A stretch of 16,302 nt of DNA, taken from the IMG/VR virus record IMGVR_UViG_3300042517_000935. One strand, 5' to 3'. Positions 15,031 through 15,170 of this stretch are shown here, piece after piece (the stretch's first letter is position 1; each line of letters opens with the position of its first letter). The notes beneath the pieces were generated by a model, which was not told where the DNA came from, did no database searches, and saw nothing but the letters and a program-made list of their open reading frames with translations. This stretch comes from a virus. The translations under genes were made by a program, and so were the position numbers.

Positions 15031-15170
15031 TGGTGCCCCCGGCCCGATTTGAACGGGCACAGCCTTTCCAGGCCAGCGGATTTCTGTTGGACTATCAGGA
15101 TTGAACTGATATGAGCACCTGTTGCTCTTGTCCCTAAGTCCGCGTCGTCTACCGATTCCGACACGGGGGC
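15031..15170 (-). tRNA. tRNA-Leu (class II; anticodon UAG if the insert is at 37/38, UAA if at 35/36) with CCA encoded, interrupted by a ~51-nt insertion in the anticodon loop.
   Basis: Minus strand reads GCCCCCG-UG-UCG-GAAUCGGUAGA-CGA-C-GCGGA-CUUAGG[51 nt]A-UCCGC-UGGCCUGGAAAGGCUGU-GCCCG-UUCAAAU-CGGGC-CGGGGGC-A-CCA. Perfect acceptor, anticodon and T stems. Architecture parallels the intron-less tRNA-Leu(CAA) at 16072-16154. Total 140 nt = 89 + 51. Confidence 0.7.

Follow-up and report, generated by a model that had tools for sequence, protein, structure and literature searches.

Which anticodon does a phage tRNA-Leu gene encode when its anticodon loop is interrupted, what is the interrupting sequence, and how might it be removed? 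These questions are raised by a gene on the minus strand of IMG/VR virus record IMGVR_UViG_3300042517_000935, analysed here as a stretch of 16,302 nucleotides (nt), hereafter the window. The initial annotation had reported a 51-nt insertion in the anticodon loop of this gene and had let its identity, UAG or UAA, depend on the insertion site. We lean, if only somewhat, towards reading the locus as a functional-looking tRNA-Leu(UAA) gene whose 51-nt insert, one of a family of such inserts in phages, lies between A35 and A36 and would be excised by enzymes that read tRNA shape. Coordinates of the main features are collected in Table 1.

The interrupted tRNA-Leu gene

Read along the minus strand from 15170 to 15031, the 5′ part of the gene is GCCCCCG UG UCG GAAUCGGUAGA CGA C GCGGA, followed by 58 nt, and the 3′ part is UCCGC UGGCCUGGAAAGGCUGU GCCCG UUCAAAU CGGGC CGGGGGC ACCA. 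The acceptor stem of 7 bp is perfect, and the class II variable arm and the T-arm are present. The two strands of the anticodon stem, GCGGA (15143..15139) and UCCGC (15080..15076), enclose 58 nt, which amount to a 7-nt loop plus 51 nt; the gene measures 140 nt with the insert and 89 nt once it is taken out.

Neither ARAGORN in its default mode nor the Rfam tRNA model calls the interrupted gene; in this region they call only tRNA-Gln(UUG) at 15985..16059 and tRNA-Leu(CAA) at 16072..16154. With introns allowed, ARAGORN calls a tRNA-Leu that spans exactly c[15031,15170] and assigns it an intron of 51 nt. The predicted fold of the 140-nt precursor is a cloverleaf whose anticodon loop opens into a three-way junction (-59.8 kcal/mol, z = -3.4). 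After in-silico removal of the 51 nt ARAGORN calls a normal 89-nt tRNA-Leu(UAA), in which all the features of a bacterial tRNA-Leu are found (acceptor stem, variable arm, T-arm UUCRANY, A73, 7-nt loop). The class II Leu architecture described at the outset thus stands, on variable arm, acceptor stem, A73 and this call. The 5′ half has 97% identity over 30 nt to an intron-less bacterial tRNA-Leu(UAA).

The gene is identical, insert included, in all six further independent metagenome contigs of the population that span it (seven contigs in total), so the interrupted gene is not an assembly artefact. Sequence, intron-aware ARAGORN, fold and the seven identical contigs all agree with the insertion as first reported, and we are highly confident that this is a real tRNA-Leu gene with an insert that belongs to the family described below. 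The sigma-70-like promoter of the gene ends 16 nt upstream of tRNA position 1, and equivalent sites lie upstream of the other tRNAs of the window (5862..5890 and 16206..16234).

A 207-aa open reading frame (ORF) call, 14565..15188, crosses the tRNA. It had been judged spurious in its 5′ portion, rightly upstream of 15005: its first ~53 codons are tRNA sequence, and other gene callers, applied to sister contigs, start at GTG 15005. The 146-aa ORF that is left has no homologue beyond itself among 5.8 billion proteins, and orthologous loci are thus unreachable through it.

Structure of the insert

From 5′ to 3′ the insert consists of G(+1), the P1 strand GGAC, AA, a hairpin GAGCA-ACAGG-UGCUC (P2), A, a hairpin UAUCAG-UUCAAUC-CUGAUA (P3), the P1′ strand GUCC and a tail AACAG. 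Folded alone it takes the same structure as within the precursor (-14.6 kcal/mol, z = -3.1). The GG(U) at the 3′ end of the P2 loop is the counterpart of a conserved GGU linker in the family and resembles G18 G19 of a D-loop. Since P1 resembles an acceptor stem, GGU a D-loop and the G-C-closed UUCRAYY hairpin a T-arm, the insert is, in our structural model, the top half of a tRNA without the anticodon arm.

One of its closest structural analogues is the tRNA-like domain of transfer-messenger RNA (tmRNA). This domain, the bacterial and phage YrlA Y RNAs (PMC4201824) and acceptor/T-arm minihelices, modules of a kind that tRNA enzymes recognise, share with the insert an acceptor-like helix on a T-arm and a D-loop-like GG; they are free-standing RNAs or RNA ends, whereas the phage insert is nested in an anticodon loop, has a G/A mismatch at its '1-72' position and lacks CCA. 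Mycobacterium smegmatis YrlA, a tRNA-like Y RNA whose acceptor-like stem has 7 bp, is cleaved by RNase P RNA (M1 RNA) and receives CCA (PMC4201824).

A family of inserts in phage tRNA genes

Degenerate (IUPAC) patterns written from the shared architecture were scanned over IMG/VR, followed by a stricter structural descriptor. A candidate was kept only if, once spliced in silico, it was called by ARAGORN without introns as a normal tRNA with the anticodon at the junction; brute-force splicing with ARAGORN was too permissive to be informative. A Leu-specific D-loop/junction pattern gave 0 matches in the IMG/VR data scanned, where this phage population is not represented. The search yielded at least 20 distinct inserts of 45-62 nt in the anticodon loops of phage tRNAs: two in the window, one in sister contigs and the rest in IMG/VR, many of them on contigs of 200-500 kb. 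Their host tRNAs are read as Asn(GUU), Ile(GAU), CAU, Lys(UUU), Leu(UAA/CAA) and possibly Thr(GGU).

The common architecture is one unpaired nt, P1 of 4-6 bp, a GGU linker or small hairpin, a T-loop-like hairpin of 4-6 bp stacked on P1, and a 5-nt tail. The T-loop-like hairpin has a UUCRAYY loop whose closing G-C is found in 21 of 21 distinct sequences, and GGU or GGA occurs in the linker of nearly all members. Tail positions 1 and 2 are A in 18 of 18 members that conform to the splice rule given below, though the search patterns demanded a T-loop and an AA-led tail, so that the conservation of both was partly imposed by the selection of members. The conserved unpaired bases are those of a tRNA elbow (GGU linker, UUCRA loop), with the addition of the tail AA. 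Counted from the first insert base to the loop, the stack of 12 of the 18 rule-conforming members has 12 layers; five more, the window Leu insert among these, have 11. In tRNA the acceptor and T stems contribute 7+5 layers, and by analogy the 5-nt tail would correspond to tRNA positions 72-76.

A covariance model, R1, was trained on nine IMG/VR sequences (eight Asn, one Ile), with no window sequence included. It recovers the window Leu insert at 15076..15143 (-) with 27.4 bits (E = 9e-4 in 0.86 Mb, 2e-4 in 0.18 Mb) and a second window insert, in a tRNA(CAU), at 5755..5819 with 41 bits (E = 1.8e-7). All the features that define this family of phage T-loop-type mini-introns, the R1 score included, are found in the window Leu insert. 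In an alignment of 21 sequences 96% of pair cells are standard, against 57% in shuffled controls and at most 52% with slid partners, and 15 of the 16 modelled pairs show compensatory (both-side) changes across the 21 distinct sequences; fitting the alignment to the model has raised these figures to some degree, and the margin is large nonetheless. All five anticodon-stem pairs covary across the family.

Small structured, tRNA-like introns in phage tRNAs appear to be an undescribed class; no description of them was found in a full-text literature search, which left most subscription journals uncovered.

Other kinds of insert were seen by ARAGORN with introns allowed at six further IMG/VR loci on contigs of up to 318 kb (L051, L062, L075, L084, L110 and L145), among them a 42-nt two-hairpin insert without a T-loop in a class-II-like tRNA, and inserts of 31 and 33 nt in neighbouring tRNAs. 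These may represent a second family of phage tRNA inserts.

Splice sites and anticodon

The sequence of an individual member leaves several cuts open, and it is the features of the tRNA bodies that single out one rule: the insert is predicted to begin 1 nt 5′ of P1 and to end 5 nt 3′ of P1′. This rule fits 18 of the 20 inserts, failing or being ambiguous in L088 and L134, and is the sole isotype-consistent option in every diagnostic case. Bodies of the Asn group have U1-A72 and G73, and other offsets would give them His (GUG) or Thr anticodons; the class II Leu of locus L033 would receive the Val anticodon CAC, and L154 and L155, whose bodies are of class I, the Leu anticodons GAG and CAG. Splicing L065 by the rule gives a sequence that, for >50 nt across the junction, does not differ from intron-less phage tRNA-Asn(GUU) genes. 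Because tRNA(CAU) is interrupted at 34/35 in the window but at 35/36 in L155, the cut sites appear to be set by insert structure and not by tRNA numbering.

Applied to the window tRNA-Leu, the rule gives CUUA/G-GGAC...GUCC-AACAG/AAA (slashes mark the cuts), which places the insert at 35/36 and yields the loop CUUAAAA and the anticodon UAA. The junction predicted for the 89-nt tRNA-Leu is GCGGACUUA / AAAUCCGC, reading through as GCGGACUUAAAAUCCGC. The junctions CUUAG/AA or CUUAGG/A would instead restore UAG. A metagenome scan of 241 million records with the pattern GACGCGGACTTARRATCCGCTGG, which admits the UAA loop and both UAG loops, returned two matches, both of them intron-less tRNA-Leu with CUUAAAA and one in a bacterial-type Gly-Cys-Leu(UAA) cluster.

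The population itself offers a further comparison. The tRNA-Leu(CAA) slot at 16072..16154 (-) is polymorphic: intron-less in the window, it holds another tRNA-Leu allele (Leu2), with a 51-nt insert of its own, in five of six sister contigs (L003, c10790..10927; L004, L005, L007 and L008). The sixth, L006, has at c1451..1533 a chimeric Leu gene with a 5′ part of the window type, a 3′ part of the other type and a mismatched acceptor stem, which could be a recombinant or an assembly chimera.

The initial annotation was right that the choice between UAG and UAA hangs on the insertion site, since both readings give a valid 7-nt loop. A tRNA-Leu(UAG) would have the insert at 36/37 (CUUAG/.../AA) or 37/38 (CUUAGG/.../A), where the introns of archaea and eukaryotes canonically lie; a product spliced in silico at 36/37 is likewise accepted by ARAGORN, as tRNA-Leu(UAG), and the loop CUUAGGA has the G37 expected of a reader of CUN codons. 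This gene identity has a slim chance in our estimate. Elsewhere in the family the 36/37 offset leads to anticodons that do not suit the tRNA: a class II Leu would have Val CAC, bodies that show U1-A72 and G73 would have His GUG, and class I bodies Leu GAG/CAG; the only intron-less relatives with the same anticodon arm have CUUAAAA, the UAG forms having been allowed by the pattern and none found; and Leu2, in the slot of the intron-less Leu(CAA), gives under the 1-before/5-after rule a loop identical to that of the gene it replaces, CUCAAAA. From these comparisons the anticodon of the window tRNA-Leu is very probably UAA, with the junction at 35/36.

A second interrupted tRNA in the window

The initial annotation had argued that a second insertion-bearing tRNA on the same strand spoke against a one-off artefact. 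The argument holds, as the second insert is related to the first and both are found by a covariance model trained elsewhere; the identification of that tRNA as tRNA-Pro does not. ARAGORN with introns allowed does label c[5722,5846] Pro(CGG), and the gene is read here as a tRNA(CAU), Met or Ile2, because its spliced form agrees with Vibrio phage tRNA-Met(CAT) genes in the D-arm and throughout the anticodon arm (ACUCGC-CUCAUAA-GCGA) and because CCG is scarce (6 of 136 Pro codons in window ORFs). Its acceptor stem (C4-G69, C5-G68) and CUCAUAA loop resemble those of E. coli tRNA-Ile2. Together with the PP-loop protein of Table 1 it could form a phage tRNA-Ile2/lysidine pair. A homologue of this PP-loop protein occurs in another phage with a family insert (L139, 630..1241).

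Comparison with known introns and ribozymes

A search of Rfam 15 gave no match to the insert on either strand, at the gathering threshold or at E<=10. Group I ribozymes are, to our knowledge, the only introns so far described in the tRNAs of bacteria and of their phages, and the cyanobacterial group I intron has its classical host in tRNA-Leu(UAA). This host, and an insert size typical of bulge-helix-bulge (BHB) introns, speak for deriving the insert from a degenerate group I intron or from an archaeal-type BHB intron cut by an EndA-like endonuclease. Either origin has a very remote chance and is already effectively refuted by what the sequence contains, as follows.

At 51 nt the insert is, as first noted, far too short for a group I intron: there is no room for the P3-P9 core, and RF00028 does not match even at E<=10. 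The junction is 35/36 and not 34/35, and position -1 is A35 where a U is needed to form G.U in P1; in the family as a whole U, A and C all occur at -1, and the final intron base, which should be G, is G, A or U. Group I tRNA introns of bacteria, cyanobacteria, phages and Patescibacteria (PMC13011429) are alike in their anticodon-loop site, including the isoacceptor Leu(UAA), in their patchy distribution and association with homing endonucleases, and in that the gene is missed by tRNA finders. They differ in being usually >200 nt with a 34/35 junction, whereas the phage inserts are 45-62 nt, with that of the window Leu at 35/36, and have a tRNA-like fold.

As to BHB introns, no 3-4-3 motif can be drawn, the fold showing a 2-bp helix, a 3-nt bulge and a 3x3 loop. 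Pairing of the tail with loop positions 32-35 (an 'anticodon-intron' helix) was considered and dropped: it can be drawn in some members (C32-G, U33-A) and is not conserved. The promoters are of bacterial type, and no EndA domain occurs in the window ORFs. The introns of archaea and eukaryotes resemble the phage inserts in being small, in lying in the anticodon loop and, in archaea, in having cut sites that depend on local RNA structure rather than on sequence; the phage inserts would likewise need a protein nuclease and a ligase for excision (EndA/Sen, with RtcB or Trl1, in BHB systems). They differ in lying at 37/38, against 34/35 to 35/36 in the phage family (one ambiguous member may be at 36/37), and in lacking the T-arm and GGU module, and the context here is a bacterial phage with sigma-70-type promoters.

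A new small self-cleaving or self-splicing ribozyme is a more serious rival, although still an unlikely one. It would be a three-way junction locked by the GG and the T-loop, with an active site in the internal loop between anticodon stem and P1, and would cut both junctions, with rejoining by reversal or by RtcB. That the splice sites follow the structure of the insert and not that of the tRNA would suit such an RNA, as would the two invariant A next to the cleavage region and the spread of the family over phages of very different kinds, which speaks for an element not tied to particular host factors. Beyond the tRNA-elbow bases, though, there is no conserved core, no Rfam ribozyme matches even at E<=10, and the flanks of the cut sites vary (-1 is U/A/C, +1 is G/C/A and the last intron base G/A/U). 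We know of no 50-nt RNA that cuts two sites and religates.

Ribozymes do accompany phage tRNAs: theta ribozymes, which are minimal members of the hepatitis delta virus (HDV)-like class, are found next to gut-phage tRNA genes, immediately 3′ of the tRNA (PMC10879173). Like the insert they are structured RNAs of ~50 nt in phage tRNA units, presumably serve tRNA maturation and often have G at the cleavage site; unlike it they form a nested double pseudoknot with a catalytic C (PMC10879173), neither of which was found in the insert. An HDV-like topology fails here: no segment complements the linker, which leaves P2 without a partner, and the candidate for the catalytic C, tail base 3, is A in 14 of 18 members. 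The element also lies inside the anticodon loop and does not abut the tRNA 3′ end, and no HDV-type Rfam model matches. Hammerhead, twister, twister-sister, pistol, hatchet and hairpin ribozymes gave no Rfam match on either strand at E<=10, and the hammerhead core is absent on inspection.

Excision of the insert

We consider it likely that the insert is spliced out. The contrary view is that it is never removed, the locus being a disabled tRNA gene or encoding a tRNA-like RNA that acts as a regulator or as a decoy for tRNA-targeting defence nucleases. Decay does occur: at L154 a well-preserved insert (6116..6177 (-), 52.5 bits) sits in a tRNA without a T-arm, no longer spliceable to a valid tRNA and flanked by GIY-YIG genes, a case of exon decay with the insert retained. 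Phage tRNAs are also known both as targets of anticodon nucleases and as evaders of them (PMC10264068). Permanent retention is nevertheless rather improbable in our assessment: the exons keep a perfect acceptor stem, T-loop and CCA, the five anticodon-stem pairs covary across the family, in-silico removal leaves 18 of 20 members with a canonical 7-nt loop that suits the isotype, and the gene is identical in seven contigs and has its own promoter.

For the machinery we favour enzymes that read tRNA shape, because the sole conserved bases build a tRNA elbow and the dimensions match those of tRNA. Excision of an RNase P type, suggested by analogy, is a tentative proposal that we regard as possible and on balance doubtful. 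The tRNA-Leu precursor would be transcribed from its own sigma-70-type promoter; RNase P would cut the 5′ junction at a +1-like site (A35/G+1), leaving a 3′-OH and a 5′-P; a second endonuclease would cut the 3′ junction; and the exons would be joined by a 3′-OH/5′-P RNA ligase, a type often present in large phages. RNase P takes hold of the elbow of a tRNA and measures from there to its cleavage site, the T-loop being needed and the D-loop dispensable (PMC4919913), and jumbo phages commonly encode 3′-OH/5′-P RNA ligases (PMC7824862). Among the features of an RNase P substrate, the Leu insert has the T-loop and the GG, 11 layers where ~12 are usual, a mismatch at '1-72' and no CCA.

In its strongest form, to which we give slightly less credence still, the proposal makes the insert a third kind of tRNA intron in phages, beside group I and BHB introns: a nested miniature tRNA with a 4-nt 3′ overhang, removed by the enzymes with which the cell processes tRNA ends, RNase P at '+1' and an elbow-measuring nuclease at '76', with an Rnl-type ligase to seal the exons. 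If this is true, splicing is a regular task of phage RNA-repair enzymes, and the mini-tRNA, once excised, might serve some purpose itself. A dedicated phage nuclease is a further rival.

Several observations weigh against excision by tRNA-reading enzymes, beside the two exceptions to the splice rule and the conservation that member selection imposed. The Leu insert itself has 11 stacked layers from +1 to the T-loop (1+4+6) and not 12, and the sister Leu2 insert has the P3 loop GUCACUC, a poor T-loop. The base opposite +1 is always A, which makes '1-72' a mismatch, and the tail lacks CCA; both weaken the case for a pure tRNA mimic. For the 3′ site we know of no bacterial enzyme that cuts 3 nt beyond a discriminator-like A. 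RNase Z was considered as the 3′ nuclease and rejected: it would cut right after that A, which is 3 nt too soon and would give a loop of 10 nt. In ~36 kb of this phage neither an RNA ligase nor a candidate nuclease was found. The flanks of 16 other loci matched 44 families, and the 25 most frequent of these include neither an RNA ligase nor RtcB.

Mobility and distribution

The neighbours of insert-bearing tRNAs are mostly of free-standing homing-endonuclease types (GIY-YIG with NUMOD, HNH). In the flanks of 16 other loci, 149 ORFs include homing endonucleases, one CCA-adding enzyme and one PP-loop protein, and a 185-aa family resembling helix-turn-helix (HTH)/HNH proteins stands beside insert-bearing tRNAs in four loci. 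In the window, the 224-aa ORF between the two tRNA-Leu genes may by analogy be a free-standing homing endonuclease, because its position parallels that of the GIY-YIG and HNH genes that other phages have beside their insert-bearing tRNAs. The HNH genes of the window agree with this pattern. Its endonuclease-gene/tRNA sites are places where contigs of the population tend to break.

L033 (IMGVR_UViG_3300016665_000978) repeats the Leu-Gln-X gene order of the window, and in its X tRNA the insert and anticodon arm are 93% identical to those of the window Leu while the tRNA bodies are only 53-63% identical. The tRNA with this 93% identity, at 3135..3262, is of class I, with a 5-nt variable loop, G1.U72 and A73, and its anticodon after predicted splicing would be UAA. 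The endonuclease neighbours, the same arm-insert module in different bodies and the polymorphic Leu slot together suggest mobility at the DNA level: the inserts probably spread between tRNA genes with adjoining homing-endonuclease genes ('collaborative homing').

Cellular genomes were searched with the class I pattern (596 Gb, 185,579 species-representative bacterial and archaeal genomes). None of the 49 pattern matches in these 596 Gb is a family member by descriptor, ARAGORN or R1; they are chance matches or ordinary tRNAs. With no members in cellular genomes and many in IMG/VR, the family is phage-restricted at this search sensitivity.

Two flanking genes elsewhere may be mentioned: one for a Ro60/TROVE-like protein, of the family that partners tRNA-like Y RNAs, and one for a bilin reductase, hinting at a cyanophage.

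Implications for annotation

A structured, covarying family of ~50-nt tRNA introns with structure-defined splice sites would be a new class and would raise the questions of who cuts and who joins. Genes of this kind are missed by default ARAGORN and by the Rfam tRNA model, and ARAGORN with introns allowed gives them wrong anticodons, such as Pro(CGG) for the tRNA(CAU) of the window and His(GUG) for Asn(GUU) elsewhere. In the window, two anticodon assignments are corrected here. Anticodons called wrongly distort tRNA repertoires, codon-compensation analyses and recoding inferences for large phages. The recurrence of one arm-insert module in different bodies, with homing-endonuclease neighbours, suggests a mobile element that targets anticodon loops, and a compact splicing module with portable, structure-defined junctions could serve as a tool.

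Phage context

The window is phage DNA, with genes for a repeat-built tail fibre, a vault-like protein, PP-loop, PTH2-like and homospermidine-synthase-like proteins and endonucleases (Table 1).

Table 1. Features of the window, with strand and the evidence for each
Feature	Position	Strand	Basis
Complete tRNA-Leu gene, class II, A73, encoded CCA	15031..15170	-	ARAGORN with introns, cloverleaf fold
Predicted 5′ exon, tRNA positions 1-35, ending CUUA (C32 U33 U34 A35)	15135..15170	-	Family splice rule
51-nt insert (putative intron) in the anticodon loop	15084..15134	-	Fold, R1 match, family alignment
P1 5′ strand GGAC, partner 15089..15092	15130..15133	-	Fold; P1 columns covary across family
P2, D-arm-like hairpin (5 bp), GG(U) at 3′ end of loop	15113..15127	-	Family alignment
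P3, T-arm-like hairpin, 7-nt loop UUCAAUC, G-C closed	15093..15111	-	Fold, alignment
P1 3′ strand GUCC and 5-nt tail AACAG	15084..15092	-	Fold, alignment
Predicted 3′ exon: A36 A37 A38, UCCGC, variable arm, T-arm, acceptor 3′ strand, ACCA	15031..15083	-	Sequence, in-silico splicing
Sigma-70-like promoter TTGACT-17-TACTAT	15187..15215	-	Sequence
146-aa ORF, 3′ of tRNA-Leu, GTG start at 15005	14565..15005	-	Other gene callers (sister contigs)
224-aa zinc-finger/endonuclease-like ORF between the two tRNA-Leu genes	15283..15957	+	Weak Pfam Phage_endo_I, E = 0.009
Second insert-bearing tRNA, tRNA(CAU); 48-nt insert 5764..5811, predicted junction 34/35 (CUC/.../AUAA)	5722..5846	-	ARAGORN with introns, R1
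Two paralogous HNH genes with NKGK-type repeats, each beside a tRNA	5911..6483, 13437..14183	+	
200-aa PP-loop (TilS-like N-terminal) protein	9334..9936	-	
Tail-fibre-like gene, tandem ~51-nt (17-aa, 'NTAVG') repeats, copies 82-86% identical	30..2363	+	
856-aa protein, major-vault-protein shoulder and repeat domains	6804..9374	-	Pfam E = 3.7e-19
Homospermidine-synthase-like protein (saccharopine dehydrogenase domains)	11172..12575	-	

Exact-protein look-ups led to contigs of the same phage population in several lake and other metagenomes. All left-hand contigs of the population end within the tail-fibre repeat array; on leftward extension contigs break in these repeats and at the tRNA. Megablast and blastn found no DNA relatives of the region among 50,697 phage records. 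The only relatives of the vault-like protein in deposited phages are in the uncultured huge phages LR756500/1/3 (462-735 kb, 37% identity); two IMG/VR relatives have 59% identity and no tRNAs nearby.

Two further auxiliary ORFs resemble a PTH2-type peptidyl-tRNA hydrolase (3797..4264 (+)) and, weakly, a malonyl-CoA decarboxylase (4707..5201 (-)). Just past the stop of the second HNH gene, at ~14200..14391 (+), another frame resembles, as judged by eye, the C-terminus of a DUF559/very-short-patch-repair endonuclease (LIIELDG..H......D..RD) and could be a remnant or a frameshifted domain. Sister contigs add some tRNA genes. L004 has an extra tRNA-Arg(UCU) (c8080..8157) beside an HNH gene, where ARAGORN finds none in the window. 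About 8 kb to the right of the window, L006 (c8454..8547) and L007 (c8511..8604) have an odd 94-nt 'tRNA-Tyr(AUA)' called by ARAGORN beside a tRNA-Leu(CAG), which may be a mis-parsed class II tRNA or an interrupted one.

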